A stretch of DNA of 64,000 nucleotides from a phage. The DNA lies in the NCBI GenBank assembly GCA_008273105.1, contig GCA_008273105.1_4080.1. One strand, 5' to 3'. How positions within the stretch are numbered: the stretch's first letter is position 1; every line of letters begins with the position of its first letter. This document shows, piece after piece, positions 212 through 45,609 of this stretch. The position numbers were made by a program, and so were the translations under genes. The notes beneath the pieces are model-generated. The model ran no database searches. It saw only the letters and a program-made list of their open reading frames with translations, and was not told the DNA's origin.

Positions 212-212
212 A

Positions 213-1193: not shown

Positions 1194-1215
1194 TTTAAAT
1201 AAATCCTTTTAGTTA

Positions 1216-2733: not shown

Positions 2734-2746
2734 GTGTTGATTCTCC

Positions 2747-3289: not shown

Positions 3290-3292
3290 GTG

Positions 3293-3829: not shown

Positions 3830-3856
3830 TTTAATAACTCCATAAGGTCGTTTAAG

Positions 3857-5964
<2,108 letters not shown>

Positions 5965-5975
5965 TCATTATCTCC

Positions 5976-6752: not shown

Positions 6753-6796
6753 AGCAACCTCTTTTTATTTTATAAGGCATTATACTTTATTTAGCA

Positions 6797-6825
6797 TAAA
6801 AAAAGCCCCGAATAGATTCGAGGCT
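6797..6825 (-). terminator. rho-independent terminator between tube paralogs
   Basis: Minus-sense 10-bp stem AGCCTCGAAT/ATTCGGGGCT (one mismatch) followed by T8. Confidence 0.55.
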
Positions 6826-6846
6826 ATATATTAAGTTTAAATAAAA

Positions 6847-7533
6847 TTAATTTTCGTAGAAGTTACTATCTGGTAGAGTAGTACTACTAATATTAGTTTG
6901 TGCACCAGAAATAGAGGTAGCAGTTGATGGATTACCGAAGCCACTAACTTCATCACCGAACGCTTCGCCATTTGGACCCAATTTAGCACAACCATCTGGT
7001 TGAACAGTCATTGAAATAACTTGTGCTTCACTTGAGGAATAATCCCAATCACCAAAGTTGCTGGATTCAATAAAGCAACCTTGACATACCCAAGTACTCA
7101 ATGTTCCTTCAAACAAGTTTGTTGTATTTTCACTATTAGAACCATCAAGCTCTTGAATCCACATTTCAAATTTAAATTGTGAATCTGTCATGCGAGATTC
7201 TTGACTGTAGTAGTTGAATTCTTTACGCATTTGGTTGTATAGTGCTTTAGCAGAAGCATTACCTACTGAGTCACGGAAAGCAACATCAATTGTATCCCAA
7301 GTGTACTTACCTTTATAGTGTGCAGAACTGTTGTAACTATGAACAGTAACATTTTCATGTGATACAGATACTGCCCCAACTGTATTGGTGTCTAGTGTAA
7401 TCATATTACCATCATCATTAGTACCAAAACCAAAGAAAATAACACGAAATTTGTATTTTGCTTTTGGTTGTTTCATAGAGATACGACCACCGCCAGCGAG
7501 CGGTACGCCATATCGATCAAGCATTGTAGCCAT
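6847..7533 (-). CDS. putative tail tube protein (paralog 1)
   Basis: 228-aa ORF directly downstream of tail sheath gene; paralog of 5976-6752. Confidence 0.55.
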   Translation of the reverse strand: MATMLDRYGVPLAGGGRISMKQPKAKYKFRVIFFGFGTNDDGNMITLDTNTVGAVSVSHENVTVHSYNSSAHYKGKYTWDTIDVAFRDSVGNASAKALYNQMRKEFNYYSQESRMTDSQFKFEMWIQELDGSNSENTTNLFEGTLSTWVCQGCFIESSNFGDWDYSSSEAQVISMTVQPDGCAKLGPNGEAFGDEVSGFGNPSTATSISGAQTNISSTTLPDSNFYEN

Positions 7534-7723
7534 TTATATTCTCCTATTATGGAATGACATCTTTATATTATTTATCTATCTGGAAGTATATTTTTAATTA
7601 ACTAAAGTGTCATCAACAGGGAACCAATTAATATTAACACAATATAAGTATCTTTTTCGTTTAGTGTGGTCAATATAGTTTACTGATATAGACCATTTTC
7701 CATTTGTGTATACTTCGTATTTT

Positions 7724-7849
7724 TCAATTATACCGACAATCTTCCAAATTTTTTAAAAATATATTTAGTATGTGTACTGATTCCAACTGAGTTAAAACTA
7801 TTTTACTGACATCTTGTATTGTTTTTTTTAGTATTTCTTCCATATCCAT
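7724..7849 (-). CDS. small hypothetical protein (41 aa)
   Basis: ATG preceded by AAAGGAA 4 nt upstream; below track size cutoff. Confidence 0.35.
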   Translation of the reverse strand: MDMEEILKKTIQDVSKIVLTQLESVHILNIFLKNLEDCRYN

Positions 7850-7894
7850 AATGTTCCTTTATAACATCAATATAAAGGTATTTAATTTTAATCA

Positions 7895-7920
7895 ATAAAA
7901 AAGGGAACCAAAAGGTTCCC
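7895..7920 (-). terminator. rho-independent terminator after tail sheath gene
   Basis: Stem GGGAACC/GGTTCCC with 4-nt loop, followed on minus strand by T6. Confidence 0.7.
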
Positions 7921-7928
7921 TTAGTGTT

Positions 7929-29004: not shown

Positions 29005-31794
29005 TTATAAATCACGGAAACGATTTGGTGTGTTTAAGCGGTACATTGAGTATAATCCCAATCCACGCATAATCTCACCTGCCCAGAAACCAAAAAACAT
29101 ACCATTATCAGTACCTTCTCTAACTGCTGGACTCCATGAACCATTCATTGGTGAACCTGGATTTACAATAACATAATTCTTTTGAAGTTCGAGAACTAAG
29201 TTATCAGCGAGTGTTGTTAGACCTTCTATTTTACATCCAGCCAATCCAGCAGCACAAGCCCCAGCTAACCACAACCCACACATATGACCTGTAAAGTCCC
29301 AATCTGGACCTTCAACTGTGCCATCTTTATTGAAGATTGTTGGTGAACGACCATCATTATCTTTTTGAAATTGAATTAAAAAGTGAATCCAATTCTCACA
29401 AAATTCAACAAGATCTGCTGGTGGTTCAATTCCTCTCTCTGCGAGTTCTTGCCATGCTCTGGCAGCCCCAAAGAACGCACGTGGTTCATACCCACTCCAT
29501 GCTTGATCACCCCAATGTAGCATAGTAAATGTATCTGGTTCACCATATTTTAAGTTATCCCAGCGGTTCCAAACATATGCTTGTGCACACGGACCAACAG
29601 TACCGAATTGTTGAGTAAACCATGTTTGGGAATCTTTCATAAAGCTTAACATGTTTCCTAAGCGTGTGTTATCTACTGGCTGGTCTTTAAAACAATATAT
29701 CACAGGATATTGATAACCTGGATACGGTAAACCACGCCATCCTGAATACTGGTTCGCATACGGGTCAGTGATGTTAGAAAATGGTATTGTTCCTGGTGTG
29801 TAATGCAATGAGTTTAACAAATAATCTTTGATTACACAATCCCCTAACTGTGCAGTATATGGTGATTCACCTGCAATTGTTATTGAAAATGTCATAGTAT
29901 AGTCATCACCGTCAGCATCCGTGTATAATTCTGGAATGTCATTAATACAATACCAATCAATTATTGCAGCAACACCATCTACTGGGGTTGTATCAGGTAA
30001 AATAGTAATATCTTCTAGTTCACTATAAACTGGTGCATCTGGTCTTGGGTCAGAACTTGGATGATTTGGCTGATACCCAGATAAACGTAATGTATCGGGA
30101 CTTAGTGTGATTGTAGTCCATTCCCCGTGTGTTGCAGGAATCATCCACCACCATCTCCAACCATTATCATCTACAATTCTTATATTGTAATCATCTTCAT
30201 ATGAACGATAGGTAAAAGATTTAACTTCAGACTTATTTGTTGCTAATAGCCAAAATCCAATAACAGCACCATCATCTTCACCACAAACTAACTGATTAAT
30301 GGTATCGCGGCGTGTAACTAATATATCAGTACTATATATCATTTCGGACGTAGCTGCACCATAAGGAACAACAATTCTACTATCAGCAATTATATAAGGG
30401 GAACCATCTGCTTTCTTTTCTCTAACAAATGCACTTAAAGGTGTTAATGAATGTGTGATATTTTGGTCTTTACTTTCCGGTAAGCCACAACGATAACGAA
30501 CAACATCATGGTCATTTTTTGTTTTTGACAATTCCAGTACTGGTTTAAATGATAACGGCTTACCATCATCACATACACCACCATAGTCTACAAGTAATTT
30601 AGAATCAGCATTGACCCTGAACCAAATAGCTTGTTGTTCCATTGTACTTTGTGCACTTTGGTCTTGCCTGATAGTAATATATCCTAGAGAATTTCTACCA
30701 AACTTAGCAATAGCATCACTTGGATAAAAATATTCATAGGAAATACCATCAGTGAATGGTGTGGTTACAATTGTACTTTGTCTGAAAAATTTATCTCTGG
30801 AGTCAATATCACCATAAGCATAACACGTTAGTAGTGAACATTTCCAACCCAAATAATGTTTTCTTTCTTTTGTTATTTTATATAACAAATAAGAAGCATC
30901 ACTAAACCACAATTCTGCATCTGATGCGTTATCCGCAAATTCCAAATCAATTGGAACATGAAGTGGGCGGTTGTGTTGCATTTCATTTCGTTGAATTATC
31001 ACACCACCATATTCTACTGGTTGACGATTTGCAAAATTTAATTTATATACACCATTAATTGTTGTATTCTTTAATTGAACAGTTCCTTTTTCAGATTCGT
31101 CAAAACCTTCTGCTAAAATATTACCATCCCAGTCGATTTTTCTACCCATGAAATCGATAATCCAGTCAACATCATATTGTTCACCTGGTGTATCCCAATC
31201 AACACTACCATCTGGTAATAATGCTTTTACTGACGCATTTATTTGGTTCCATGCTAAAGCACCTTTGAATGCAAATGTTACTTTATCCAAGAACTGACCA
31301 TAATAAGGTGCACCATGTGGTATTTTACATTGTCCATTTGTAAATGTAAATTCTACACCCTTGAAACCACCATGTGTAGGCCATCCATCATCAGCTAAAG
31401 GCCAGTTAGCCAATATAGGTTCTTTGGCATTAACTATCCAGTTACATTGTAGTGGTGTAGGTGGATCTGGTAATTCACGTCCAGCATAAAAGTACTGATG
31501 ATATGCGTCCCAGTACCACTTTGCCTTATCTAAAAACATTGGATCATTTGTTGCCAGATACGCATAAATGTATCCTAAAATTAATAGACTTTGACCTTCT
31601 GTTGTCCCGTCACCGTTTGGTTGACCTTCCATTGCAGAATAGTTAATAAAATGACGGTTGTTCGCCAAAACACCCTGATTATTCACCACATAATGTTGTA
31701 CTGTTGGGTCTATTGTATCACCAGTATTTCTTTCAATAAATTTGTGATGCCCATAAAGAAGTTGTACAATATTATCAATATTATTGTTTAACAT
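29005..31794 (-). CDS. large hypothetical protein (929 aa), possibly virion-associated with glycoside-hydrolase-like region
   Basis: Long Trp/Tyr/Gly-rich ORF; call is weak, from composition only. Confidence 0.55.
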   Translation of the reverse strand: MLNNNIDNIVQLLYGHHKFIERNTGDTIDPTVQHYVVNNQGVLANNRHFINYSAMEGQPNGDGTTEGQSLLILGYIYAYLATNDPMFLDKAKWYWDAYHQYFYAGRELPDPPTPLQCNWIVNAKEPILANWPLADDGWPTHGGFKGVEFTFTNGQCKIPHGAPYYGQFLDKVTFAFKGALAWNQINASVKALLPDGSVDWDTPGEQYDVDWIIDFMGRKIDWDGNILAEGFDESEKGTVQLKNTTINGVYKLNFANRQPVEYGGVIIQRNEMQHNRPLHVPIDLEFADNASDAELWFSDASYLLYKITKERKHYLGWKCSLLTCYAYGDIDSRDKFFRQSTIVTTPFTDGISYEYFYPSDAIAKFGRNSLGYITIRQDQSAQSTMEQQAIWFRVNADSKLLVDYGGVCDDGKPLSFKPVLELSKTKNDHDVVRYRCGLPESKDQNITHSLTPLSAFVREKKADGSPYIIADSRIVVPYGAATSEMIYSTDILVTRRDTINQLVCGEDDGAVIGFWLLATNKSEVKSFTYRSYEDDYNIRIVDDNGWRWWWMIPATHGEWTTITLSPDTLRLSGYQPNHPSSDPRPDAPVYSELEDITILPDTTPVDGVAAIIDWYCINDIPELYTDADGDDYTMTFSITIAGESPYTAQLGDCVIKDYLLNSLHYTPGTIPFSNITDPYANQYSGWRGLPYPGYQYPVIYCFKDQPVDNTRLGNMLSFMKDSQTWFTQQFGTVGPCAQAYVWNRWDNLKYGEPDTFTMLHWGDQAWSGYEPRAFFGAARAWQELAERGIEPPADLVEFCENWIHFLIQFQKDNDGRSPTIFNKDGTVEGPDWDFTGHMCGLWLAGACAAGLAGCKIEGLTTLADNLVLELQKNYVIVNPGSPMNGSWSPAVREGTDNGMFFGFWAGEIMRGLGLYSMYRLNTPNRFRDL

Positions 31795-31795
31795 A

Positions 31796-32332
31796 TCATA
31801 CTCCTGCTCTAATTAATGCACCGTACCATGTAACTCCTTTATCATATGTTTCTAATGAAATAATATCTTTTTCACCAATTTCATAAGAAAGAACAACTGG
31901 TCTGTTATATGACCATTTAACATTAGAACCCCAATTAACTAGGTTTGAACCTGTTTGTTGTGTTAATAGGATGGTAATTGAATAAACTTCAGTAGGAGCC
32001 GCACCAATCGAAATAGTAGTATTTCTATCAGATAAATTAATATTAAAAACAGCATTGCCCGACAGTGGATTAATTAAAATATTATTAGAACTTAATACAT
32101 TATATAACTTATTACTTGCACTATCATATAATGTTACCCATTCTGTTTCATGATTCTCGTTAGTAGCTTTAGCTTTTATCTTAACATTATTTTCAGAATC
32201 AGTCATTCCAGTCCATCCAGATATAATAAAAGAACTGTTTTTATTAGTTCCGAATGATGCAATCACAGAATCACTAAGAGAACTATCTTCACCATCAATA
32301 GATCCGAGTACTGACAATGTTAAAACCATCAT
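31796..32332 (-). CDS. hypothetical protein
   Basis: 178-aa ORF; 38-nt overlap with upstream ORF in +1 frame. Confidence 0.5.
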   Translation of the reverse strand: MMVLTLSVLGSIDGEDSSLSDSVIASFGTNKNSSFIISGWTGMTDSENNVKIKAKATNENHETEWVTLYDSASNKLYNVLSSNNILINPLSGNAVFNINLSDRNTTISIGAAPTEVYSITILLTQQTGSNLVNWGSNVKWSYNRPVVLSYEIGEKDIISLETYDKGVTWYGALIRAGV

Positions 32333-32500: not shown

Positions 32501-34771
32501 TTACTTATACCATTGCATTTCTCTAATATCAATGATAATTTTTGATGCTAACTTGATGTTTGGTTTTTTAGGAAGTACTGATTTCTTATATAGAACATCA
32601 CGAATGTATTGTACTTTATCATCGAAATATTCTAAGACTTCTTCATACTTCCATTTACCATTACGAATATCCATCAACATTTGTGCATCTGGTCGTTTAA
32701 CTTGAATAATTCCACTTTGTAATGCTTCTTCTGCACTATTCAAAAGTCGGATTGTGTGCATAGCATGTTTACAGTTTCCATGTAATGCAGTTTTACCATT
32801 TCTACGAGTAACCAGTGTACCGTTCGGAACTGAAAAACAAACAGTTCTGTAGTTAGTTACTGGAATTTTTTCAAGATTTTGTTTCATGTTTATTTTTTCT
32901 GATTTAGGTTTCATATTGATATGAACTTGATACATTTCAATATAACCAAAATTAGTTTCGTTTGTGTATGGTCCCCATTTCGATGTTTCATAACCGCACA
33001 GTAATGCTAGTTTTTGAACATCATCAGCTAATAATGAATTAGCAGTATAATATACATATGTGTCATCATGATTGACCAAATTACGTTTTGTACCATCACC
33101 TTGCAACAAACCTTTTAGCAGAAAATCCATTTTTCGTTTTGTTAAATCAAATGCCCAATTTGGAATTCTTTTATTATATGATCCATGCCCACAATCATTA
33201 TATAATGCTTCAGCCACTTCACGTGGAAATACAAATCTTGATTCATCATTTGATTGGTAATCTTTTCTTTCGTTAATGTATTCCTGAAATATCATTTGTC
33301 CAGATTGTTTGTATTTTGATAAAGCACAACGCATACCAGGACTGGCTTTTGATTGTGAAATGTATAATGATTTTACTTTTCCATCTCTAAAACTTATACT
33401 ACCATCTGAAAGAAACCATCCCATCAGTTGAAGATAAACTTTGATATCCATATAGTCAATTGGGCTTTTTTTATCTTTATATTCCTTTGTTATTGGAGAT
33501 AATGTATTCAAAATTTTATAAGTTTCTTTTAATTGTGCTGCTTCAACAAATTGCCATTCTGACATATCTTTTTGCTGATTACGTGCATAATTCTTAACAT
33601 ACATTCTGTGATTTGCAGTCACTAACGTATCTTGGTGATGACCAGTGAAATGGTAAAGATTTCCATTGTATAAATTATCAAAACGTTCTGTGTATTTTTG
33701 ATACTCTATTTTGTGATTTTTATCAAAAGTCGCTAATAGATCTTTATCAGTGATGTCGTCAAATAATTTCCAACCATCTTTAGTTAAGAATTCAGTATCA
33801 AAACTATAACAGTCGTATCCGTGTTGTGATTCTAAAATAGCACGTTTGGCATTACGATTTTCTTTCCATTTATGATAACTTTTCCTATTCTCACTATTTT
33901 CCTGATATTCTTTTTCGTTAAATTTGACAATTAGTTCTGGTTTAGTTTTCAACTCTTCAGTACTACGCTCTTTAGAAAAATAACGCAATGATCCATCACC
34001 GTTGATAGTGCTTTCATTCGGATTTTTAATAATCGCAAAAATGTTTTCTCCGTAATGAATTAGTTCATAACCATTATTAAAATTCAATAAATTGAAATCA
34101 CGATCAAGAATTTTTTCAGTAGTGTAGTTATGCACTAATCTTACAAAATGATATTGCTTTAATGGATTTTTCGAAACTAACTGCAATGACGTATCACGCA
34201 TATATTTTTCAAAATCAATCTTTTTAGCATTAAATGGATGTAAGTTGGATGTATCTAAACGTTCAACAAGATACTGTGGGAATGAATCATACATCCACGC
34301 AAGAACCTCATCGACAGGGTGTTCTTCTAAAATCTCATTTAATCGTTTTTCAGCAATACGCTCTTTATCCATCCAACCGTGATGATTTGTCATACGCTTA
34401 ATCTGATTATATGCATATCCAGTGTATGAAAATGCAATCTTGGAACTAAGAAGTTTTTGGTTAAATGAACGAAGATAGTCATAAATCTCAGTACTTTCTA
34501 CAATGTGTTCTGGATCGACCCATAGTGATTCCAATATATTAGGGTTGGCTTCAGTGTATAATTTTAAATACTGATTTAACTCATAGAATTTAGTATCTTC
34601 TTCATTTTTATCAGCTACTTCTTTGACCTTATAGAATGGCGTAAGAATAAATTCTTTATTAGCAAGAAAAATACCACGATAATCAGTATCACTTTCAGGT
34701 GTACTGGTTCCGTAGGCTTGTGACCCAGCCAAGTGTTTCACTATTGTTTGTTCAACATATTGGTTATTCAT
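32501..34771 (-). CDS. Pol-beta-superfamily nucleotidyltransferase interrupted by an intein
   Basis: N-terminal HLAGSQAYGTSTPESDTDYRGIF (GS...SDxD NTase motif); in-frame ~346-aa intein; C-extein CKHAMHTIRLL... Confidence 0.7.
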   Translation of the reverse strand: MNNQYVEQTIVKHLAGSQAYGTSTPESDTDYRGIFLANKEFILTPFYKVKEVADKNEEDTKFYELNQYLKLYTEANPNILESLWVDPEHIVESTEIYDYLRSFNQKLLSSKIAFSYTGYAYNQIKRMTNHHGWMDKERIAEKRLNEILEEHPVDEVLAWMYDSFPQYLVERLDTSNLHPFNAKKIDFEKYMRDTSLQLVSKNPLKQYHFVRLVHNYTTEKILDRDFNLLNFNNGYELIHYGENIFAIIKNPNESTINGDGSLRYFSKERSTEELKTKPELIVKFNEKEYQENSENRKSYHKWKENRNAKRAILESQHGYDCYSFDTEFLTKDGWKLFDDITDKDLLATFDKNHKIEYQKYTERFDNLYNGNLYHFTGHHQDTLVTANHRMYVKNYARNQQKDMSEWQFVEAAQLKETYKILNTLSPITKEYKDKKSPIDYMDIKVYLQLMGWFLSDGSISFRDGKVKSLYISQSKASPGMRCALSKYKQSGQMIFQEYINERKDYQSNDESRFVFPREVAEALYNDCGHGSYNKRIPNWAFDLTKRKMDFLLKGLLQGDGTKRNLVNHDDTYVYYTANSLLADDVQKLALLCGYETSKWGPYTNETNFGYIEMYQVHINMKPKSEKINMKQNLEKIPVTNYRTVCFSVPNGTLVTRRNGKTALHGNCKHAMHTIRLLNSAEEALQSGIIQVKRPDAQMLMDIRNGKWKYEEVLEYFDDKVQYIRDVLYKKSVLPKKPNIKLASKIIIDIREMQWYK
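32774..33811 (-). mobile_element. intein with LAGLIDADG homing endonuclease domain
   Basis: Block A CYSFDTEFLTKDGWK; LAGLIDADG-like LMGWFLSDGSISF and LLKGLLQGDGT; C-terminal ...ALHGN then Cys+1; boundaries approximate. Confidence 0.75.
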
Positions 34772-35171: not shown

Positions 35172-35681
35172 TTAACCACCATACTTTGACTTGTATGTTT
35201 CAAGTGATAAAGAAATACGATTTTGCTTTTTAATTCTTTCATCAATATCCTTTGAATTCTTCACACTTCGGTATACGTCAGCTAGTAAATTATAATCTTC
35301 TTTATTTGAGCTATGCTGTGCCCAACCTATCTCTGTTTTAATACGAACATTTGCTTTATTTGACGAGTAAAAGAAACTGAATCCATTGGACCCATCAAAA
35401 ATATCAAAAGTATCTACCCAATCACCATAAGGAAAGCTCATTGGAACTGACTCATGGTCTATTGTGATATCCGATAAATTTTTTGAACAGTACTTCGCAA
35501 AGTGATAAACGATTGGATCACATTTTGATAATTCGTATTTGTATTCAATGATAGTTTTTCTATTAGCATCATTGATAGCATATTCTTTTATCAATGGACT
35601 TTTTTTGATGATAAGAGTCCATAGAAACGATTCTAATCCTGTTTCATCAACTTTTTGTTTCTTTTTGAAAAATGAAATCAT
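35172..35681 (-). CDS. hypothetical protein, tandem paralog family member 3
   Basis: Shares KSxxLK...TDxDR(K/R)...KYxLSK and W...FxG motifs with the two upstream genes. Confidence 0.55.
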   Translation of the reverse strand: MISFFKKKQKVDETGLESFLWTLIIKKSPLIKEYAINDANRKTIIEYKYELSKCDPIVYHFAKYCSKNLSDITIDHESVPMSFPYGDWVDTFDIFDGSNGFSFFYSSNKANVRIKTEIGWAQHSSNKEDYNLLADVYRSVKNSKDIDERIKKQNRISLSLETYKSKYGG

Positions 35682-36199
35682 TTATATAAACCCTTAATTT
35701 TCTGTCTATTATGTATATCATTTTGCTGGATTTTCAATTTAGTAAGGTTGTTTCTTACACCTTCAACACCACGCATTATTTGTAACATAATTAGTGATTC
35801 GTCATATGTTAGGACATTGCTATTATTATCGATATATACTTTCACTCCACTTTCAAGATAATCATTTTCTTTGGAGTTAAAGTTTCTAATAACAAACTTA
35901 ACGCCATTTGATGCATCACTGAAAACATATCGTTCCGCACCGTAGAATGTTTTTCCACGAAATAAACCGCCGTCTTCCCACTTCCAACGACTAGATTCAT
36001 AATCATTAACGTAATCAATGATTAAAGAAAGTAAAGGGTGTTTGCTCAATTTATATTTTGCATCTAACAGGATACGTCTATCATTATCTGTGGTGATAAT
36101 ATCCTTTAGTGAGTAGCTTTTAGATATAATTTTAAAGATAATTTCATGCCAAATTAAAGTACTGTTTTGTTTTCCAACTGATCCAAAAAACATATCCAT
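35678..36199 (-). CDS. hypothetical protein, tandem paralog family member 2
   Basis: Paralog of 35172-35681 and 36206-36772. Confidence 0.55.
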   Translation of the reverse strand: MDMFFGSVGKQNSTLIWHEIIFKIISKSYSLKDIITTDNDRRILLDAKYKLSKHPLLSLIIDYVNDYESSRWKWEDGGLFRGKTFYGAERYVFSDASNGVKFVIRNFNSKENDYLESGVKVYIDNNSNVLTYDESLIMLQIMRGVEGVRNNLTKLKIQQNDIHNRQKIKGLYK

Positions 36200-36205
36200 T
36201 CCTCA

Positions 36206-36772
36206 TTAGTATAAATCAGTAATGTCTTTGTATGCATTAATCTGTTTTTGTTGTAATGAAAGTTCATTGAGTTTAGTTACCATCTTATCTACACCAACAC
36301 GTGTATAGAAAATAATTAATGAATCTAAATTGCCTAGAGTAATTCTTGAACTGTAAGTTGAAAGTTTTCTTGCATAAACATAAATTTCTTCTTCACTTGG
36401 TAAACGTTTCTCAATCTGCAAGATTTCCTCACCATTCGGCTCATAATCGATTTCAAATTCAACTCCCATCACTGTGTCTTGAATGCGATCTGTATATGAA
36501 CCACCGTAAAAATACTCTCTTGGTTTGGCTCTCCAACGAGGACTAAATGGGTCAGATGCGTATTCTTTTACAAATTTGTAAAAGGACATTTTACTGAGCA
36601 TATACTTCATCTCAATTAGTGCTTTGCGGTCATCATCAGTTTTAAACTCTGCTTTGAGCGATGGACTTTTACACAGTAACTTAACTAAATTGTTGTACAT
36701 CTTTAATGTACGTTGTTCTTTCATTTCTTTGATTTTGTGACGTTTTGGTGGCGGTAATAAAGATTTGACCAT
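36206..36772 (-). CDS. hypothetical protein, tandem paralog family member 1
   Basis: Paralog; AGGAGG RBS; first gene after fibre-gene terminator. Confidence 0.55.
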   Translation of the reverse strand: MVKSLLPPPKRHKIKEMKEQRTLKMYNNLVKLLCKSPSLKAEFKTDDDRKALIEMKYMLSKMSFYKFVKEYASDPFSPRWRAKPREYFYGGSYTDRIQDTVMGVEFEIDYEPNGEEILQIEKRLPSEEEIYVYARKLSTYSSRITLGNLDSLIIFYTRVGVDKMVTKLNELSLQQKQINAYKDITDLY

Positions 36773-36805: not shown

Positions 36806-36835
36806 AAAAGAAAAGCCCGTCAATAGACGAGCTTT
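36806..36835 (-). terminator. rho-independent terminator after fibre gene
   Basis: Stem GCTCGTC/GACGGGC (one mismatch), 4-nt loop, TTTTCTTTT tail. Confidence 0.55.
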
Positions 36836-36839
36836 AAAT

Positions 36840-39569
36840 TTATTTCCAACGTGTACCTGGACCTGATGGTACACCAGTACTGGCAGGTATCGCTGAACCA
36901 CGTTTCGTTGTACTTGGACGATATGTCAAAAAACGAGTTACTTTTTCTGTATCAATTGAAGTTATTCCTGAAGTTCCAGTAACTATCTTACCAATGTAAG
37001 TGCTAGTTAAAGATTCATCAATTGTTTCAGTACTAATAACATATGACGCTTTCTTAGTATTCCTGTTCATTTGTATATACAAATAGAACGTAGTATTAGC
37101 TGGATTACTTTTTACAGTACTTAAATCAACACTTTGTATAGGTAGTCTGTCGAAAATTCCACCTAAAAACACCGGAACTTCACGTGTAAAGTACACTGAG
37201 AATCCTTGTGCAACGTCTTGTGATACTACCACAATCTTTTCTTTAACGCTACCATTTCCACTAATTAAACCATCCATTTCAGCAGATGTTGTACCAAAAA
37301 CGCTGAATACAGATTTGGTTTGATAGTCAGAATCTTGAAAATTGTAATATCCAAAACCAACACCAGGAATAACACCATGTTGATATGCTGCACCAAGTTG
37401 GATGTAACTAGATGATAAAAAACGATTTGATGTTATGACACCATCTACTGTTTTAGCTATCATCATCTTAAATTGTGCATTACCTGGTTGTGAAAATTGA
37501 TGAACGGCATCAACACCAATGTAACCAAATCCTGAATATTTTGCAACAGTTAGACCAGTACAACGTTTCATATATGCTTCAGTAATAATTCCTGTAACAG
37601 AACTCAGTGTTTCATATCTAGTACTCACCAATGTAGCTGAAGTTATGTTAGTTCCAGATAATACAACATCAACTTCGGCATAGATTGCATAACCTTGGTT
37701 ATTGTTAAGATTATATGCTGAAACTACTGCGATGGATTTAGAAAAAGTATTATCAGGTACATAATATAATACAATTTGTCCAGATAGTGTACCAACAATG
37801 CCAGAGTTTCCTATATTAGCAAAAATATCTTGTTTTAATGATTCTAATACCGTTGGTTCTATTGTATATGTTTCATCAAATTCTAAAGTATCTGGATTTA
37901 ATAATCCACCACTTGTTTTATATACACCTTCAATGAATGATGTTCCATAGCATCTAACACTACCATCGGTATCAACAAGAGAAATCATAGCAGTGTATGT
38001 AAAATCATCGCCTATTTGTTTACGATTAGATTGTGGTGCAAAACCATTTAATGTAGTATTATTTTGAACTGAGTTATATTGATATGTTGGTTGTGAACCT
38101 ATTTCAGAAAAAACAGTATTATTATAATTATATGTTACATCATCATACGTACCAGAACATGCTAATAATATTTTTCTATTATCGATGAAACGTACACCTA
38201 AAAGGTTTGCACCAACAGCACTACCAAAAACTGGTAAAACGTTTGCATTTATAACGTTACTTGCGGTTCTAGTACTGGCAACCCATGAATCAAACGGTGT
38301 ACCACTAACCTTATATCGTTGTAGACCATAAAATTCAGTTGAACTCCATCTAAATTTAGATGCAAATACCAAACCATCTTTAGTTTGACATAAACCACCT
38401 GCGTTTCCTAATACACCAGCAGCAGTTGTCCCTGTGAAGTTGACCATATTAATTTCAAATGGGTTAGAAACTTGAAATCCATTATTATATGAAACAGTTG
38501 CAGGTGCACGAGCACTACCATCTAGTGACATAGATTTTGAGTTTATATTATAAACAAAACTTATTCCAGTACCATAAACTGTTGAAATATACAAAGGTGT
38601 AACCATTCGATGTGTTGGATATAAAGTTACACGTATTTTTGATAAATCAGGACTAACGTTGGCTTGAATGTTAAAGTCTGTATAGTCTGAAAATTCTACA
38701 CGTGATACTGGTGATGTAACTTCGAATAATGAATCCGAGCTAGTACCAACACTATATAATTTATCGAACACTCTTATGTTATTAGATGCAGAATAACTTG
38801 TGTTTCGAACAGTTTGACCTGATAACCCAGTAACTTTTGTTAATGATGCCATTGAGCTTGCTTTCACATCACTTAGCTCTACTGTATAAATTGAAAGTGC
38901 TAATCCTAAATTAGAAACACTTTTATCTTTACACCAAATATAAACCTTTGTCCCAACAATATGTGTATATATTGGCATATCATTACCAAAAGAAGTACTT
39001 GGCACTTTAGCATGAATATGTGATATTTCGTTAAATGTGCCATTGGTTATAGTAAAAATATAATTATCTTCAGTACTTAAACATCCAAGCATCTCATAAC
39101 CATTAGAGCCAATAAAATACTTAATATTTTCAGTACTACTCATAATTGAAGGTTTATACATTGAATTGGTTGAAATAACACTTTCTTGTGAAATCATAGT
39201 TATATTTCGGAGATCTCGTATAAATGAATAATAAAAACCTTTAGTACTACCATTGGTTCCGCTACGCAGAACAACGGCGGTTCCATCATCTTCAATAATT
39301 GTTGGCTGAACTACTTGGTCACTTGACATAGGTGTAGCACCTTCATACGATCCACTTACGTTTAATGGTAAGTAATCCATTTCTCCTACACGTGATATAG
39401 GCAACATATCTAAAATACTTTGAACTTCTGAACGCTTATATATTGGATATTGAACAATTCCAGTATTGGCATTCGGTGAGGTTCCATTAAAAGTACGCAT
39501 AGCGTACCTTTGTCCAATTGCCAAGTTCCCAAGGATCTCGGCACTTCCTATAATTCGTTTTGATGACAT
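36840..39569 (-). CDS. putative tail fibre / receptor-binding protein (paralog A)
   Basis: ~910 aa from MSSKRIIG (AAGGAAAATAAAG RBS); N-terminal LRSGTNGS and C-terminal GTSGIT...TYRPS...GxPSxxGT modules shared with 40185-42881. Confidence 0.6.
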   Translation of the reverse strand: MSSKRIIGSAEILGNLAIGQRYAMRTFNGTSPNANTGIVQYPIYKRSEVQSILDMLPISRVGEMDYLPLNVSGSYEGATPMSSDQVVQPTIIEDDGTAVVLRSGTNGSTKGFYYSFIRDLRNITMISQESVISTNSMYKPSIMSSTENIKYFIGSNGYEMLGCLSTEDNYIFTITNGTFNEISHIHAKVPSTSFGNDMPIYTHIVGTKVYIWCKDKSVSNLGLALSIYTVELSDVKASSMASLTKVTGLSGQTVRNTSYSASNNIRVFDKLYSVGTSSDSLFEVTSPVSRVEFSDYTDFNIQANVSPDLSKIRVTLYPTHRMVTPLYISTVYGTGISFVYNINSKSMSLDGSARAPATVSYNNGFQVSNPFEINMVNFTGTTAAGVLGNAGGLCQTKDGLVFASKFRWSSTEFYGLQRYKVSGTPFDSWVASTRTASNVINANVLPVFGSAVGANLLGVRFIDNRKILLACSGTYDDVTYNYNNTVFSEIGSQPTYQYNSVQNNTTLNGFAPQSNRKQIGDDFTYTAMISLVDTDGSVRCYGTSFIEGVYKTSGGLLNPDTLEFDETYTIEPTVLESLKQDIFANIGNSGIVGTLSGQIVLYYVPDNTFSKSIAVVSAYNLNNNQGYAIYAEVDVVLSGTNITSATLVSTRYETLSSVTGIITEAYMKRCTGLTVAKYSGFGYIGVDAVHQFSQPGNAQFKMMIAKTVDGVITSNRFLSSSYIQLGAAYQHGVIPGVGFGYYNFQDSDYQTKSVFSVFGTTSAEMDGLISGNGSVKEKIVVVSQDVAQGFSVYFTREVPVFLGGIFDRLPIQSVDLSTVKSNPANTTFYLYIQMNRNTKKASYVISTETIDESLTSTYIGKIVTGTSGITSIDTEKVTRFLTYRPSTTKRGSAIPASTGVPSGPGTRWK

Positions 39570-39585
39570 CTTTATTTTCCTTAAT

Positions 39586-40173
39586 TTACCAACCAATTGT
39601 ACCAGTTTCTGATGGTTTTCCAGTACTGACTGGGAATGAAGAACCTTTTTGTGTAACACTAGGTCTATATGTACTAAATCTGGATACTTTATTAATGTTT
39701 ATATTTGTAATACCACTTGTACCAACGGTCAGTGTTCCAATAAACATTATAATTTCAGATTCTTGTATTTGTGTTGGTGATATTTTATAAATTGGTTCAC
39801 CGAGAACTAACGTTGCATATACGTATTGTGTTTGTGTTCCAGATGAAACAGTTGAAGCAAAAATAGAAACTGCTGGAAATTTATAAAGATAACCACCAAT
39901 AAATGATGGTATCTGTCTATTAAATGTAAGACTATAGCCTGATGAAGTAATATTTAGACTAGCGTCATCATACAATTCTCCGTATTGTGTAAGTGGTAAT
40001 CCATTGACAATAAAGTTAACTTCATCTTTGGTAATAGAGGGGAATGTACATTCCCCATTTGAATTTGTTGGGTAATAAGTCATATTATTACCTAATACAC
40101 CAAGACCAGTACTTTTACCCTGAACTGTAACTTGTTGCATTGCCTTAAGGTCTGCTCTTATTTTATATGCCAT
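39586..40173 (-). CDS. putative short fibre-like protein sharing C-terminal module (paralog B)
   Basis: 195 aa; C-terminus VGTSGITNININKVSRFSTYRPS...GKPSETGTIGW matches both large neighbours. Confidence 0.55.
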   Translation of the reverse strand: MAYKIRADLKAMQQVTVQGKSTGLGVLGNNMTYYPTNSNGECTFPSITKDEVNFIVNGLPLTQYGELYDDASLNITSSGYSLTFNRQIPSFIGGYLYKFPAVSIFASTVSSGTQTQYVYATLVLGEPIYKISPTQIQESEIIMFIGTLTVGTSGITNININKVSRFSTYRPSVTQKGSSFPVSTGKPSETGTIGW

Positions 40174-40184
40174 TATGTAATCCT

Positions 40185-42881
40185 TTACCAGTTTATGGTT
40201 CCTGTTTGTGATGGTAGACCGTAGCTAACTGGGAACGATGAACCTGCTGATTCAAGTGAAGCACCAAATATATCTAAACGGGAACGTTTTTGTATATTAA
40301 TTGTTTCGATTTGAATTGCATTAGTTTGAATTGTACCTATCCAAAAAATATTATATGCAGTTGTTCCTGTTTCAGAAATAACATCAGTAGTTATGTAATA
40401 GTTTGCCAATCCTTGTTCCAATTTAACATATACATAAAATGTTGTATTTGCTGGATTAGACTTAATAGTTCTCAAATCAATATTTGAAACTGGTAGTGAA
40501 AATGACTTACCTGAAAGAATAACTGGTGTTTCCTCTGTAAAATATACAATAAACCCTTGAGCAACGTCCTGGGATACTACGTTAATTGGGCTACCTTGTG
40601 CAGTCCAGTTATTATAGTCGGCAATCGTTGTTCCATATTTTTTGAATGTCATTTTATTTGAGTAATCCATTGGTTCAAAAATTCCAAAACCAATACCAGG
40701 TAATGCTGCTGGTTGACTTCCTTGTTCATAACTGGCATGAGATCCAGTAATTATAAAACTTGTAAATTGTGCAGTTGATTTAGTTACATATGCTCTAAAT
40801 TGATGAGTTGCAGTATTACCTATTGTTGGATGTGATAATGGGTCAGAACCACCAATGAAGTAGAATGAACCACCATCATATATTGTCAAACCAACAGAAG
40901 AAGATGCAATCGAACCATTCCCAGTTGGTGTAAAGTTATCACCATACGTATTCTCAAGTACTAAACGCTTAAATGTAATAGATGTAATATTACCAACTCT
41001 AGTATTGACATTAACTTCAGCAATTCTAATATAGTTTCTATAATCATTAGTAATTGTACTCAACATAACAAAAGCTGGAATGTCTGTTTGTTGTGGAACA
41101 AATAGTGTCATATCACGGTATGCTTGTGCTGATAAATTCCAATCACTTAGAACTTTGGCATATTCAGTATTTCTAAAATTGTCCAGTACTGATTGTGTAA
41201 CGCTTATAATTCCTGTGCCATTTAAGTTTTTATCATAGGATAATGATTGTGAATAACGTTGCCCAACCATAAAAATACCACCATTGGTTGTGACAGTTGA
41301 CCCAGAAATACTACTAATAAAAATTCTATTATTTGCATTATCATCAACATTAGCACGTTCAACTGTAGGTTCATAACCTTGTATTGTTCCTAAAGATAAT
41401 GATTTAAATGTAAAATTAGGAGTACTTTTATGAACTGCATATGATGGTCTAAATCCACCACTACCTGATGCACGTGAATATTGTTTAGTACTGTTATCTG
41501 GTAGTAATTCTACACCATTAATAAATGAACCAACCGCTGAACCAAAAGACGGGCGAACTATACCACCTTTGAAGTCAGTAGAAAGTACAGCACGGACATT
41601 CAGCATACTATAAACTATTTGAATAGGAAACTTAGCTTTTTGCATAAGTAATGGTTCTGCTAAGTTTGGACATGCAGTACAAAATGCTTCACCTGAATTT
41701 AAATAAAAATATGAACTATAAATGTTTCTTGCATTTGCATGGTTATACAATGGATCGTTATTTAAAACGTTACCAGTAGGAACTAATGCCGAACCAGTAT
41801 TAGTTATAACTAATGGTGCTTGATATGAACCAATATCGTTACCCGCATCTAATGTACATTGTTTAGTACTCATATTGAACACAAAACTGTAACTATGCTG
41901 TGGACGTGTATTATATGTTGCCATTGTAAACCAAGCATCCCCGTTCATTCTAAAGCGGAAATTCTGCGTTCCTGGCTGCTGTGCAACATATAAATCAATT
42001 GATGTCATGTAAATCCCAATACCACGTAGATTTTGTGGAACATACACATAAGGTTTATCAGCAATATTTGTTGATGTTACCTGATTAGTAATAACCATAT
42101 TATTTTGTGCAGAATATGTCGTGTTATAAAATGTTTTAGTAGTCCATCCAGTAATTCGAGTTGCAGTATAAGTACCATTGCTTATATTATAAACAACTTT
42201 AACAACAACTAATTGTAGTTGGTTATTTTCATTAAGTACGTTAAAAACATATATAGAACCATCTTCTGCCATCATAGCATATTCAATACCACCTTCAGGT
42301 GATATATCTGCTTGGTTAACGAAAAAACCAGTATGCAATTTATCATCTAATGTACCATTGGTAATTGATATGAACAAACCATTAGTACTGTTAGAAGTAT
42401 CAATATATCTACCGAGTAAAATATTTGGATCAGTATTATATAAACCAATCGCAACTCTATTTGAACCAAAAAACCCAGGCTTGTATTGACGACTAGTGTT
42501 AATTGTACGGCTCATGTCATCAACTGATAATGCGTTAGCCAAATATGAATAAAATAATCCCTCAACACTACCGTTTGTCCCACTACGTAAAAGTACTAGT
42601 GTACCATCGTTTTCTAATAAAATTTTATTTCTACGTTGTGACTGGTTTTCTGATGCACCATTGAAATCCCCAGAAACACCCGCAGGTAGATAGTTTTGTG
42701 AACCATAATGGGAGATTGGCATCATACTTACTATATCTAGTACTTCATCTCTGGAATAAGTATCTAATTCCAAGTTACCGTTGGAATCAAAAACTTGTTC
42801 ATTTATTCCTTGAATTGTTCTTTTACCATTAACTGTCACATTATGTGTGACATCTAAGCCACCATATATTTTCTTTGACAT
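40185..42881 (-). CDS. putative tail fibre / receptor-binding protein (paralog C)
   Basis: 898 aa; shared N- and C-terminal modules with 36840-39569; late-promoter-like motif upstream. Confidence 0.6.
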   Translation of the reverse strand: MSKKIYGGLDVTHNVTVNGKRTIQGINEQVFDSNGNLELDTYSRDEVLDIVSMMPISHYGSQNYLPAGVSGDFNGASENQSQRRNKILLENDGTLVLLRSGTNGSVEGLFYSYLANALSVDDMSRTINTSRQYKPGFFGSNRVAIGLYNTDPNILLGRYIDTSNSTNGLFISITNGTLDDKLHTGFFVNQADISPEGGIEYAMMAEDGSIYVFNVLNENNQLQLVVVKVVYNISNGTYTATRITGWTTKTFYNTTYSAQNNMVITNQVTSTNIADKPYVYVPQNLRGIGIYMTSIDLYVAQQPGTQNFRFRMNGDAWFTMATYNTRPQHSYSFVFNMSTKQCTLDAGNDIGSYQAPLVITNTGSALVPTGNVLNNDPLYNHANARNIYSSYFYLNSGEAFCTACPNLAEPLLMQKAKFPIQIVYSMLNVRAVLSTDFKGGIVRPSFGSAVGSFINGVELLPDNSTKQYSRASGSGGFRPSYAVHKSTPNFTFKSLSLGTIQGYEPTVERANVDDNANNRIFISSISGSTVTTNGGIFMVGQRYSQSLSYDKNLNGTGIISVTQSVLDNFRNTEYAKVLSDWNLSAQAYRDMTLFVPQQTDIPAFVMLSTITNDYRNYIRIAEVNVNTRVGNITSITFKRLVLENTYGDNFTPTGNGSIASSSVGLTIYDGGSFYFIGGSDPLSHPTIGNTATHQFRAYVTKSTAQFTSFIITGSHASYEQGSQPAALPGIGFGIFEPMDYSNKMTFKKYGTTIADYNNWTAQGSPINVVSQDVAQGFIVYFTEETPVILSGKSFSLPVSNIDLRTIKSNPANTTFYVYVKLEQGLANYYITTDVISETGTTAYNIFWIGTIQTNAIQIETINIQKRSRLDIFGASLESAGSSFPVSYGLPSQTGTINW

Positions 42882-42915
42882 TATATATCCCTTATAAATT
42901 AGATATTAGTTAATG

Positions 42916-42923
42916 TATTTATA
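42916..42923 (-). promoter_or_regulatory. T4-type late promoter-like motif (TATAAATA on minus strand)
   Basis: Exact TATAAATA ~40 nt upstream of fibre gene start, just after the nrdG terminator. Confidence 0.4.
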
Positions 42924-42930
42924 TACATAA

Positions 42931-42953
42931 TAAAAAAGCACCCAACGGGTGCT
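42931..42953 (-). terminator. rho-independent terminator after nrdG
   Basis: Stem GCACCC/GGGTGC, 3-nt loop, T6 on minus strand. Confidence 0.65.
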
Positions 42954-42957
42954 TATG

Positions 42958-43428
42958 CTAAAAATCTTTATTTTTATATAGTATTCTTTGATTATTTGAA
43001 CCACGGAAAGGTAATTTTAAATTCTTTTCGGACTCAATAAACTTACCATCAACTAATACATCTAAGTACTGAAGTATATCTTTAGCATGATTTTTCATAA
43101 TCTCATCTAAAGTATACCCACTCCAGCACCAAATAGTTTTACTAGGATAAGTTTCTTTAACTACTTTGCATAGATTTAAAACTTCATCTATATTCTTTTT
43201 CATTAATGGATCGCCGCCTAGAAGTGACAAACCACTAACATATGGTTTTTTTAGTTCCTGTAGTATAATCTCAACTGTTTCAGTACTGAACAATTGACCA
43301 CTTCTGTAATCCCATGCTTCTTCATTGAAGCAACCATCACATCCGTGCGAACACCCACTAACAAATAAAGAGCAGCGAACGCCCTCTCCATTTACTAAAT
43401 CATCCTTGATTATCGTCTGGTAATTCAT
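42958..43428 (-). CDS. nrdG: anaerobic ribonucleotide reductase activating protein
   Basis: NGEGVRCSLFVSGCSHGCDGCFN radical-SAM Cys cluster typical of NrdG; adjacent to nrdD. Confidence 0.85.
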   Translation of the reverse strand: MNYQTIIKDDLVNGEGVRCSLFVSGCSHGCDGCFNEEAWDYRSGQLFSTETVEIILQELKKPYVSGLSLLGGDPLMKKNIDEVLNLCKVVKETYPSKTIWCWSGYTLDEIMKNHAKDILQYLDVLVDGKFIESEKNLKLPFRGSNNQRILYKNKDF

Positions 43429-43732
43429 CTAATATTGCACTCACTATTTCGACAAGAACATCGCCGTGACATGATTTTGGTTTACAGAAACAACCAAGGC
43501 GTTTCCCTGCGAGTTCAAGTAATTCATCAATCTTAACTTCTCCACAAGAAATACGTTCAATAATGTATTCTCTGAATTTTTCAATTGATTCTTCTCTTGT
43601 ACTAACAATGAACTCGGCTTTGGTTTGTTTATCTTTAATATGGGTAAATGGGTTTCCCCATTTAGACCCACGTCCAATATACACATCATACGGTTCTTTG
43701 TATTTGTTAACCACAATTGGCTTTAAATCCAT
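43400..43732 (-). CDS. conserved phage protein, DUF4326-like (name recalled, unverified)
   Basis: DVYIGRGSKWGNPF...CFCKPKSCHGDVL motif. Confidence 0.5.
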   Translation of the reverse strand: MDLKPIVVNKYKEPYDVYIGRGSKWGNPFTHIKDKQTKAEFIVSTREESIEKFREYIIERISCGEVKIDELLELAGKRLGCFCKPKSCHGDVLVEIVSAILDELPDDNQG

Positions 43733-43740
43733 AATTTACC

Positions 43741-45609
43741 TTATTTGTGCTGAATACGCTCGCAACACTCTTGTTGCTTGCCTTTATTGAAGCCACGCGA
43801 AGAAGGATTACCCAAGTACCCAGAAACACGACGAATCACTGAGATTGTCTTCTCATTACGATTATCACATACAGGACAGTGGAAACCATGTTTATCGACA
43901 CTGAACTCACCCTGGAAGCCACATTCATAACAATGGTCAACTGGTTGGTTAATACCAAAATATGGTATCTTAGTGTACGCATAGTTAACTAATGTTTCAA
44001 GTGCTTGAATGTTGTTTGCTAAGTTTGGAGATTCAACATAACTGATGTTTCCACCGTTACTTAGGTAAGCAAACCCTTCTTCATAACTCCATTTATCAAA
44101 TGGAGAACTTTCTACCCATACTGGTTGATGGAAGGAATTTGTGATGTAATCACGTTTTAGTACTGAAGGATATTTTGCTTCAATGCAACGTGCAAATTTA
44201 TAACAAAGTGACTCTGCTGGCGTTCCATATAGACTAAAAGCTATATTACTCTCTTTTTTGAACTCATCGCATTTTACTTTCATATAATTCAGTACTGACA
44301 TACAAAACTCCTTACTGATAGAACCAGTGAGGATTTCTGAACATTCAACAAGTCCAACATAACCAATACTAATACTAGCATAACCATTGTAAAATAGCTT
44401 GTCAATGGTTTCTTCTGCACCTAAACGTGCTAATGCACCTTCCATGAACAAAATTGGATTTTGCTTTGCTTTAGTGCCTTTTAAACGCTCTACGCGGTTC
44501 ATCTGAGCACGATATGCAATATTCATATGCTCGTCTATCTTATCAAAAAACTCTCCGTCAGAAGTACTCTCAAGAGCAATTAGAGGTAAATTGATAGAAA
44601 CCACACCTAAATTGAAACGACCGTTGTATTGTTCATTTCCATTTGAATCTTCCCATTTTCCTAAGAATGAACGACAGCCCATCGGTGTTACAGCAGTACT
44701 ACTACTTCCAGTCACTTTGTGATTTAATGGTACTGAAACAAAGTCAGGGTAGATTCGTTTTGATGCACAACGCATAGCTAACTGTTTAAGGTCATAATTA
44801 CTATCGTTGGTATTCATGTTTATACCATCTTGTAAAAAGAAAATTACTTTAGGAAACACTGGAGTAATCTTATCTTTACCTAAACCATTCTCATGGACTT
44901 TTAAGTACTGTTCAGTGATTAATTTGCCAAATTTAGAAGTGTTAAGACCTAAACTAAGAGAAATAAATGCAGCTTGACCATTAGTACTAATCATTGAATT
45001 AGTTTGGTAAAGTAATGTTTGGCAGCCATCATACACTTCTTTACGTAGTTCTTCTTCAATGAATTCATCACTTAGATTATATTTCTTTTGTTTTTCTAAC
45101 AGCTTATCCCATGACTTTTGAACGTAAGGTTCTAATCCGACATCAATGTGAGCCAAAGATTGACCACCATACTGGGAACTGGCAACAGCTTGGACAATTT
45201 GTGTCAGTACTGTGCAAGCTACACTGAAACTTTTTGGTTCTTCAATTTTAGCACAACCAATAGTGAAGCCGTTTTTAAGCATATCAGGATAGTTAACCAA
45301 GCAACAATTGGTCAATGGGCTAATATAGTAATCTAAATCATGAATATGACCATATCCATCATTATGCCATTGCATTAACTCGGTGGGAATAACATCTTGT
45401 GAATAATGCTTAGATAGAATACCTGCTAGTAAATCTCTATGTGTATTGACGCATTTTGCATCTTTATTAGCGTTTTCATTAGTAAGATCAGTATTACTCT
45501 GATTTAGGAAATTTGTTACATCGGTATATAATTTATCTAATTGCATTGTACATTCCTTGTATTTTGAAATCATCTGGGGGTGAAGATATTTAATATCACC
45601 AGACAACAT
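43741..45609 (-). CDS. nrdD: anaerobic ribonucleoside-triphosphate reductase (class III), large subunit
   Basis: 622 aa; C-terminal glycyl-radical motif RRVSGYLG; four-Cys site CYECG...CPVCD. Confidence 0.9.
   Translation of the reverse strand: MLSGDIKYLHPQMISKYKECTMQLDKLYTDVTNFLNQSNTDLTNENANKDAKCVNTHRDLLAGILSKHYSQDVIPTELMQWHNDGYGHIHDLDYYISPLTNCCLVNYPDMLKNGFTIGCAKIEEPKSFSVACTVLTQIVQAVASSQYGGQSLAHIDVGLEPYVQKSWDKLLEKQKKYNLSDEFIEEELRKEVYDGCQTLLYQTNSMISTNGQAAFISLSLGLNTSKFGKLITEQYLKVHENGLGKDKITPVFPKVIFFLQDGINMNTNDSNYDLKQLAMRCASKRIYPDFVSVPLNHKVTGSSSTAVTPMGCRSFLGKWEDSNGNEQYNGRFNLGVVSINLPLIALESTSDGEFFDKIDEHMNIAYRAQMNRVERLKGTKAKQNPILFMEGALARLGAEETIDKLFYNGYASISIGYVGLVECSEILTGSISKEFCMSVLNYMKVKCDEFKKESNIAFSLYGTPAESLCYKFARCIEAKYPSVLKRDYITNSFHQPVWVESSPFDKWSYEEGFAYLSNGGNISYVESPNLANNIQALETLVNYAYTKIPYFGINQPVDHCYECGFQGEFSVDKHGFHCPVCDNRNEKTISVIRRVSGYLGNPSSRGFNKGKQQECCERIQHK

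Follow-up and report, generated by a model that had tools for sequence, protein, structure and literature searches.

Three paralogous proteins encoded in a hypervariable cassette of an Asteriusvirus jumbo phage: candidate host-recognition proteins, one of them headless

What three adjoining and evidently related genes of a jumbo phage do, and why the middle one is so much shorter than its neighbours, is the question raised by positions 36,840 to 42,881 of a 64,000-nucleotide stretch of phage DNA (GenBank assembly GCA_008273105.1, contig GCA_008273105.1_4080.1; the whole of this stretch is referred to here as the window). The three open reading frames (ORFs), designated A, B and C, lie on the minus strand, as do all genes hereabouts, and the phage is of the PBECO4/121Q type (Asteriusvirus): the region is 99.4-99.8% identical to that of Escherichia phages JP4, PBECO4, phAPEC6 and others, which are 350-kb jumbo myoviruses of the Rak2-like group. 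Hosts of the PBECO4/121Q type include E. coli O157, avian pathogenic E. coli and Salmonella; use of these phages in therapy and biocontrol is under consideration, and their host-recognition proteins are essentially unassigned. Counterparts of A, B and C in JP4/PBECO4-type records are entered as "hypothetical protein", as is the family in nearly all other records (two name a member 'minor tail protein'). The reading proposed here, with a probability of about 0.55, is that A, B and C are late-expressed host-recognition proteins of the tail or baseplate periphery, globular rather than fibrous in build. The genes and their segments are:

40185..42881, minus strand: ORF A, 898 amino acids (aa), long paralog, ortholog of CBB gp147; stop codon included.
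42657..42881, minus strand: N-terminal segment of ORF A, aa 1-75, with a low-confidence beta stretch, a helix at 44-53 and a conserved P-x-S-x-Y-G; common to ORF B.
40599..42656, minus strand: predicted beta-propeller body of ORF A, aa ~76-761; boundaries approximate.
40269..40598, minus strand: C-terminal shoulder-like beta-sandwich of ORF A, aa ~762-871; fold assigned via the ORF B model.
40188..40268, minus strand: conserved C-terminal tail of ORF A, aa 872-898, ending in an invariant Trp; predicted local distance difference test score (pLDDT) below 50 in the monomer.
39586..40173, minus strand: ORF B, 195 aa, headless mini paralog.
39952-40173, minus strand: N-segment of ORF B, aa 1-74.
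39664-39951, minus strand: shoulder of ORF B, aa 75-170.
39589-39663, minus strand: tail of ORF B, aa 171-195.
36840..39569, minus strand: ORF C, 909 aa, long paralog, ortholog of CBB gp149.
39345-39569, minus strand: N-segment of ORF C.
~37248-39344, minus strand: body of ORF C.
~36843-37247, minus strand: shoulder plus tail of ORF C.

ORF C as originally listed starts at a GTG (36840-39659, 939 aa). That start, at 39659, was rejected: it lacks a ribosome-binding site and overlaps ORF B. The ATG at 39569, preceded by a good ribosome-binding site (AAGGAAA), is the most likely start, and ORF C is accordingly given 909 aa.

That three paralogs with a common C-terminal module lie between 36840 and 42881, as a preliminary description of this DNA had it, is borne out by BLASTP. 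A and C are homologous from end to end (28% identity, E = 1e-63); B aligns with C (residues 77-192 with 787-906; 43% identity, E = 6e-24) and with A (residues 77-195 with 774-898; 36% identity, E = 9e-17), and its first ~70-85 residues match the N-terminus of A (E = 4e-7). The motifs originally pointed out (GTSGIT, TYRPS, a Pro/Gly-rich end with terminal W, and LLRSGTNGS) are all present. An N-terminal block is indeed shared by A and C, but it is not theirs alone, since B has it too. B is not a C-terminal module only; it is a long paralog minus its middle, made up of the N-terminal ~70 aa and the C-terminal ~120 aa of a long form, and alignments of 25 to 48 sequences place one gap of ~720 residues between its N-module and its C-module. 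The similarity of the shared module is not compositional, nor is the module mere low-complexity sequence, because a B-family profile matches 426 cluster representatives (clusters at 50% identity) at E <= 1e-3 among 1.84 billion proteins; among the ORFs of the window it matches A, B and C only. A and C belong to phrog_3573 (E = 1.7e-274 and 4.7e-267) and B to phrog_26864 (E = 4.4e-115). None of the three proteins matches a Pfam entry, and a look for internal repeats in the sequences of A and C was negative. The paralogy of the corresponding CBB proteins is already in the literature: the supplement of the CBB paper lists CBB_147-148-149 as paralogs.

The origin of the short middle form is suggested by phage CBB, in which three full-length paralogs (gp147, 902 aa; gp148, 916 aa; gp149, 916 aa) occupy the same position right after nrdD...nrdG. 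BLAST scores pair A with gp147 and C with gp149 as orthologs, with the gene order after nrdG unchanged, and gp148 is the best match of both the N- and the C-module of B; a metagenomic CBB-like contig has the same arrangement (902, 914 and 912 aa). Because the CBB slot holds a full-length gp148, and this is the best match for B, ORF B is most simply read as the middle paralog shorn in frame of its ~720-aa centre. It is no decaying remnant. Copies in the diverged relatives Turkey5, 7t3 and ph0011, with 44-63% identity to ORF B, are intact at 195-196 aa, and the ratio of non-synonymous to synonymous substitution rates (dN/dS) for B (0.28-0.36) is in the same range as for A (0.13-0.36) and C (0.19-0.41); ORF B is under purifying selection. 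B would fill the same structural position as the long forms, minus the head, with its attachment parts retained by selection.

Headless forms appear to be a recurrent, selected state. The family is found in the jumbo phages CBB and GAP32, in jumbo phages of Erwinia, Yersinia, Serratia and Aeromonas, in EL (gp114/gp115), in Goslar and in SPN3US-like phages; the best 148 representatives include 62 minis (<= 260 aa), 72 long forms with the module at the C-end and 10 with further domains after the Trp. One of these 10 extended forms, P0195, continues beyond the module with a Big_2 domain and a GP38 tail-fibre adhesin domain (PF05268, E = 2.4e-16). The suggestion that the central regions differ through shuffling of modules thus holds for the wider family, in which the module is joined to other partners such as the GP38 adhesin, but not for A and C, which are homologous throughout.

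That A, B and C are virion proteins can be stated with high confidence. The counterpart of ORF A in phAPEC6, gp323c (98.6 kDa; 99.7% DNA identity), was detected by virion mass spectrometry (MS) with 4 peptides and 5.6% coverage (PMC7247149, Table 1). The GAP32 proteins that correspond to CBB_148 and CBB_149, the orthologs of B and C, carry the label GAP32-MS in the CBB supplement, for detection in GAP32 virions, and the "structural protein" label carried by CBB_147-149 derives from these GAP32 data. Virion proteomics, the check first proposed for this locus, has in effect been published for two phages, and it speaks for structural proteins (A in phAPEC6, the B and C orthologs in GAP32). The phAPEC6 proteome could not identify B or C, since the phAPEC6 record (MK817115.1) annotates neither: in its segment 8001-11334, which equals window 36840-40173, the sole annotation is gp322c, a 114-nucleotide (nt) ORF inside ORF C.

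That ORF B lay outside the phAPEC6 MS search is also one of the points that might be made for regarding it as an assembly chaperone or adaptor, pairing transiently with A and C via the shared module and forming no subunit of the virion. It is small and sits between two large paralogs, which recalls the small genes found downstream of many tail-fibre genes, and minis are common in the family (62 of the 148 best representatives). On the other hand, the full-length GAP32 ortholog is a virion protein, B has no similarity to known fibre chaperones, and every conserved element of the long forms is kept in B, the terminal tail too, which suggests that it makes the same structural contacts as they do. 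A chaperone role is distinctly improbable.

Structure prediction indicates what kind of protein the long forms might be. The AlphaFold2 model of A (43-sequence alignment; mean pLDDT 87.4, predicted template modelling score (pTM) 0.80) is nearly all beta and is poorly defined only at residues 1-55 and 872-898. It describes a globular, all-beta propeller; searched with Foldseek at full length, it finds only low template modelling (TM) scores, to assorted propellers. The model of B (pLDDT 75.5, about 90 in the core) consists of a helix (49-58), a beta-sandwich (62-166) and a disordered tail (171-195). Its sandwich resembles the shoulder domain of the receptor-binding proteins (RBPs) of lactococcal phage p2 and phage 1358, of SPP1 gp22 and of TssK, and further fold matches are to the fibre of cyanophage A-1(L), HFTV1 fibre gp42 and a phi812 baseplate protein. 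The shoulder domain, which all of these have in common, is the part by which trimeric RBPs and TssK sit on the baseplate. The alignment of B with p2 RBP covers 118 residues, more than the sandwich itself (about 95), which implies that this domain probably includes the N-terminal helix and that the propeller of A and C would be an insertion: N-segment and C-module would probably constitute one shoulder domain, with the propeller inserted within it. The tail is the most conserved stretch family-wide, 9 of its 25 positions being invariant or nearly so, the terminal Trp included (in ORF A, the invariant residues are G880, G888, P890 and W898). Since it is the most conserved part and yet is unmodelled in the monomer, the tail fits a neck or docking element that might be ordered only in the oligomer or on a partner.

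A globular propeller is no fibre, and the label "fibre-like" initially attached to these proteins is not sustained by the model of A. The nearest surviving form of that idea makes A, B and C components of the hair-like whiskers or capsid fibres of phAPEC6 and CBB. The proteins that form these hairy fibres have still to be named, A is a virion protein without assigned function, and the N-terminal 45 residues and the C-terminal tail, being unmodelled, could extend. But the compact all-beta fold that is predicted offers nothing that might build hairs of ~119 nm, be it a coiled coil, a beta-helix or a collagen-like repeat; no internal sequence repeats were found, and homologs occur also in phage groups for which such hairs are not mentioned in the literature covered. 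The idea is weakened by the globular fold, and is very unlikely to be right.

Host recognition has indirect support in the variability of the locus, in its synteny with the RaK2 tail-fibre cluster and in the relative fused to a GP38 adhesin. Compared with ph0011, the flanking DNA is 86-98% identical and the A-B-C segment 49-68%, and the transitions near 43,000 and 36,900 are abrupt. Protein identities are 94% for nrdD and 86-98% for the genes downstream, as against 52%, 44% and 50% for A, B and C. A-B-C is exchanged as one block and is hypervariable between close relatives, as is expected for determinants of host range. Within A and C the central bodies diverge faster than both ends, which supports the proposal, already made in the preliminary description, that the shared ends serve for attachment; an adaptor common to all three, also proposed there, may be what they attach to. 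The window genome is itself a mosaic at this point (36840-45600): nrdD is 99.6% identical to that of 121Q and ~95% to those of PBECO4/JP4, and the A-B-C cassette is 99.7% identical to PBECO4/JP4 and 94.4% to 121Q. Because the nearest relative switches in this manner, a recombination junction is placed between nrdD and ORF A.

The cassette also has the appearance of a separate transcription unit, defined by the following signals:

42936..42954, minus strand: terminator-like hairpin just past the nrdG stop, AAGCACCCGTTGGGTGCTT followed by a T run; parts the cassette from the nucleotide-metabolism genes.
42916..42923, minus strand: TATAAATA, a motif resembling T4-type late promoters, 35 nt upstream of the start codon of ORF A.
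36812..36835, minus strand: terminator-like hairpin right behind the stop of ORF C, where the cassette ends and identity with ph0011 climbs abruptly back to 87-98%.

The motif TATAAATA, situated between the nrdG-side hairpin and the start of ORF A, occurs in 2 copies in the 64-kb window (11.7 are expected by chance) and agrees with the late promoter predicted for the structural genes of CBB and GAP32; in the CBB paper, ATAAATA is the sequence predicted to serve structural genes as late promoter, and a sigma factor like gp55 is described. In five diverged relatives (CBB, 7t3, ph0011, Turkey5 and one from metagenomic data), ATAAATAC stands equally far upstream of the A ortholog, and the DNA around it differs. 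The nrdG-side hairpin also precedes the A orthologs in CBB, 7t3 and ph0011. On the coding (minus) strand of the window, ATAAATA is found only 8 times (at 50939, 42922, 32459, 10649, 7575, 6733, 3864 and 3339); the copy at 32459 lies upstream of a pair of genes for a 178-aa and a 929-aa protein (the latter phAPEC6 gp314c). A-B-C is most likely one late-transcribed cassette bracketed by terminator-like hairpins, to judge from these sequence signals. A non-structural role tied to the surrounding nucleotide-metabolism genes (nrdD, nrdG, nucleotidyltransferase) would be suggested by the genomic neighbourhood, and by that only. It is strongly disfavoured: against it stand the MS detections in virions of two phages, the separate transcription unit with its late-type promoter motif and hairpins, and the predicted RBP-like and propeller folds.

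The way in which host-recognition proteins of this build might work can be outlined as follows. A, B and C would attach via the shoulder-type module, anchoring as p2 RBP and TssK do on baseplates; the common parts are the N-terminal ~70 aa (short beta stretch, helix, P-x-S-x-Y-G), the C-terminal sandwich of ~100 aa and a Gly/Pro/Ser-rich tail of ~25 aa with the Trp. Propeller lectins, sialidases and the phi11 RBP suggest by analogy that in A and C the propeller of ~690 aa between N-segment and shoulder would bind a surface glycan and possibly also cleave it. Trimerisation, glycan binding and tail location are inferred. A rather doubtful extension of the scheme is that A, B and C together form one pseudo-threefold heterotrimer through their paralogous shoulders, that is, a unit with two heads and one headless subunit instead of three homotrimers. 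It is prompted by the recurrence of triads (exactly three members across Asteriusvirus, CBB/GAP32-type phages and Yersinia and Erwinia relatives), by the exchange of the genes as a block, and by a long-long-short order in a distant metagenomic phage. In the latter (Logan ERR3569152 contig, positions 1-6795), the three family members stand in tandem. The first is long and truncated by the end of the contig, the second is a long form of 981 aa, and the third, of 361 aa, continues past the conserved Trp with an additional C-terminal domain; the next gene encodes an unrelated protein of 481 aa.

The main rival to host recognition is a purely structural role, in which A, B and C would be a scaffold of the baseplate or tail periphery, like TssK or the outer-baseplate framework of phiKZ, with propellers that serve as platforms for protein-protein contacts and bind no receptor directly. 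Likeness to TssK and to the phi812 baseplate protein is in keeping with such a role, as are the low abundance in MS and the many accessory framework proteins of large jumbo-phage baseplates (PMC13250141). So is the conservation of N-terminal blades and shoulder as far as EL gp114/gp115, which are encoded beside a baseplate assembly gene. (These EL proteins, of 1184 and 1193 aa, from locus 2836-10027, resemble A and C in P-x-S-x-Y-G, in the initial blades of the propeller and in shoulder and tail; a ~270-aa N-terminal extension and another centre set them apart.) However, it would be unusual for an internal scaffold to be far more diverged than its flanks and to be exchanged as a block; moreover, the bodies evolve faster than the attachment ends, one family member is fused to a GP38 adhesin, and the locus corresponds to the tail-fibre cluster of RaK2. 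A scaffold is accordingly the less probable role, though it is an alternative to be reckoned with.

Several observations weigh against host recognition all the same. The adsorption role and the tail placement are inferred, not taken from experiment. CBB virion MS (Table 4 of the CBB paper) detected none of CBB_147-149, and coverage of A in phAPEC6 is low. The fold matches are those of predicted monomer models at 5-13% sequence identity, and single-sequence and profile searches of PDB sequences yielded no relevant match (the sole match being a chance one, to an antibody Fab). In p2 RBP and TssK the shoulder is N-terminal, and A, B and C carry their shoulder-like module at the C-terminus; the order shoulder, neck, head is not that of A, B and C, whose chains end after the tail, and is encountered only in the distant relatives P0100, P0101 and P0195. 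TssK itself is a baseplate scaffold and no receptor binder, and the conservation of the first propeller blades out to phage EL could mean a structural rather than an adaptive role. The propellers of A and C are without Asp-boxes or recognisable catalytic or lectin motifs. Finally, comparison of relatives for variation linked to host range, as initially recommended, has a mixed outcome: the cassette is hypervariable, but both E. coli O157 and Salmonella Typhimurium served as isolation hosts for phages with identical cassettes, so that no simple link of cassette to host is visible.

Some neighbouring genes merit description in their own right. Directly downstream of ORF C, at 35172-36772 on the minus strand, are three small tandem paralogs (169, 173 and 188 aa; 30% identity, E = 5e-15) that have no Pfam match; they are 86-96% identical to their ph0011 counterparts and 27-36% to those of Turkey5, a pattern of variation unlike that of A-B-C. 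At 32501-34771 (minus strand) lies the gene of an RlaP-type nucleotidyltransferase of 756 aa with a LAGLIDADG-type insertion (Pfam LAGLIDADG_3, residues 551-610). The same protein has ~410 aa in JP4, phAPEC6 and ph0011, and the insertion looks like an intein or homing endonuclease that is present in this phage and not in its closest relatives. The 929-aa protein already mentioned (phAPEC6 gp314c, detected by MS) and the 178-aa protein upstream of it (29005-32332, minus strand) have no Pfam match; the former is named tail fibre or 'tail formation protein GpI', depending on the record, and the two may be a second adsorption-related pair near the cassette. Between nrdD and nrdG, a DUF4326 protein of 110 aa is encoded at 43400-43732 (minus strand), overlapping nrdG by 29 nt; other small genes, for example a pyruvate formate-lyase-like ORF of 120 aa in 7t3 and ph0011, occupy this slot in relatives.

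Paralogy and virion association of A, B and C are already in the literature. A limited search for receptor-binding proteins of Asteriusvirus found nothing relevant, and annotations and papers on the CBB, GAP32 and phAPEC6 orthologs, as far as covered, assign no function, fold or role. Within these limits, what is apparently new comprises the folds assigned to these proteins, the origin of B by deletion and the selection acting on it, the cassette's boundaries, hypervariability and synteny with the RaK2 fibre cluster, its late-promoter motif, and the mini, long and extended architectures of the family. A bounded, late-expressed and hypervariable cassette is a target for engineering of host range and for explaining host differences among near-identical genomes, and the 426-cluster family, almost all of it unannotated, would gain a working annotation. 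The shoulder-type attachment domain, familiar from siphophage RBPs and from TssK of the type VI secretion system, is suggested to occur, rearranged, also in jumbo myoviruses. A heteromeric shoulder-type RBP with inserted head and a stump as its third subunit would, if true, be a new design of phage host recognition.

Comparison with known systems places the cassette as follows. Its direct orthologs are CBB gp147-gp149, GAP32 gp143-gp145 and phAPEC6 gp323c (PHROG 3573 and 26864), in the same order after nrdG; all three proteins are full length in CBB and GAP32 (902-916 aa), whereas the middle one is cut to 195 aa in the Asteriusvirus lineage. With p2 RBP (PDB 2WZP), 1358 RBP, SPP1 gp22 and TssK, the A/B/C module shares a predicted beta-sandwich shoulder fold, without similarity detectable in searches of PDB sequences. 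Two differences from p2-type RBPs are that the presumed propeller head of A and C (~690 aa) lies upstream of the sandwich instead of after it, and that the phage is a jumbo myovirus of Gram-negative hosts. With the RBP of Staphylococcus phage phi11 (PDB 5EFV), AAL fucose lectin, GH33 sialidases, GH130 and GH43, A and C have in common a predicted propeller, at 5-10% identity and as a general fold match only; Asp-boxes and catalytic signatures are absent from A and C.

Among jumbo phages, phiKZ gp131-gp135 are likewise tandem paralogs that have an attachment domain in common and differ elsewhere. Gp131 contains a propeller, and the paralogs build the hetero-oligomeric base of a fibre (PMC13250141). 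The shared domain of the phiKZ proteins is N-terminal and the propeller C-terminal, in contrast to A and C, and an A/C profile gave no match in phiKZ 12-32 kb and 105-195 kb, gp131-135 included. PhiKZ gp27, an outer-baseplate framework protein that also has 898 residues, and gp26 were rejected as counterparts, with profile-comparison probabilities of about 0.1% each; the equal length of A and gp27 is on that account a coincidence. The closest likeness in genome position is to the tail-fibre/depolymerase cluster of RaK2, gp526-gp534, which is preceded by the run nrdD, nrdG, ORF524, ORF525w. A search of the terminal 50 kb of RaK2 found no homologs of A, B or C. The RaK2 proteins are tailspike-type depolymerases that form branched long fibres, and A and C are predicted propeller proteins. 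RaK2 gp526-gp534 are experimentally shown to form the long tail fibres, and several host-recognition proteins of the virion are likewise encoded together (PMC10253068). By this analogy, the locus after nrdG looks like a place that holds whichever adsorption proteins a lineage uses.

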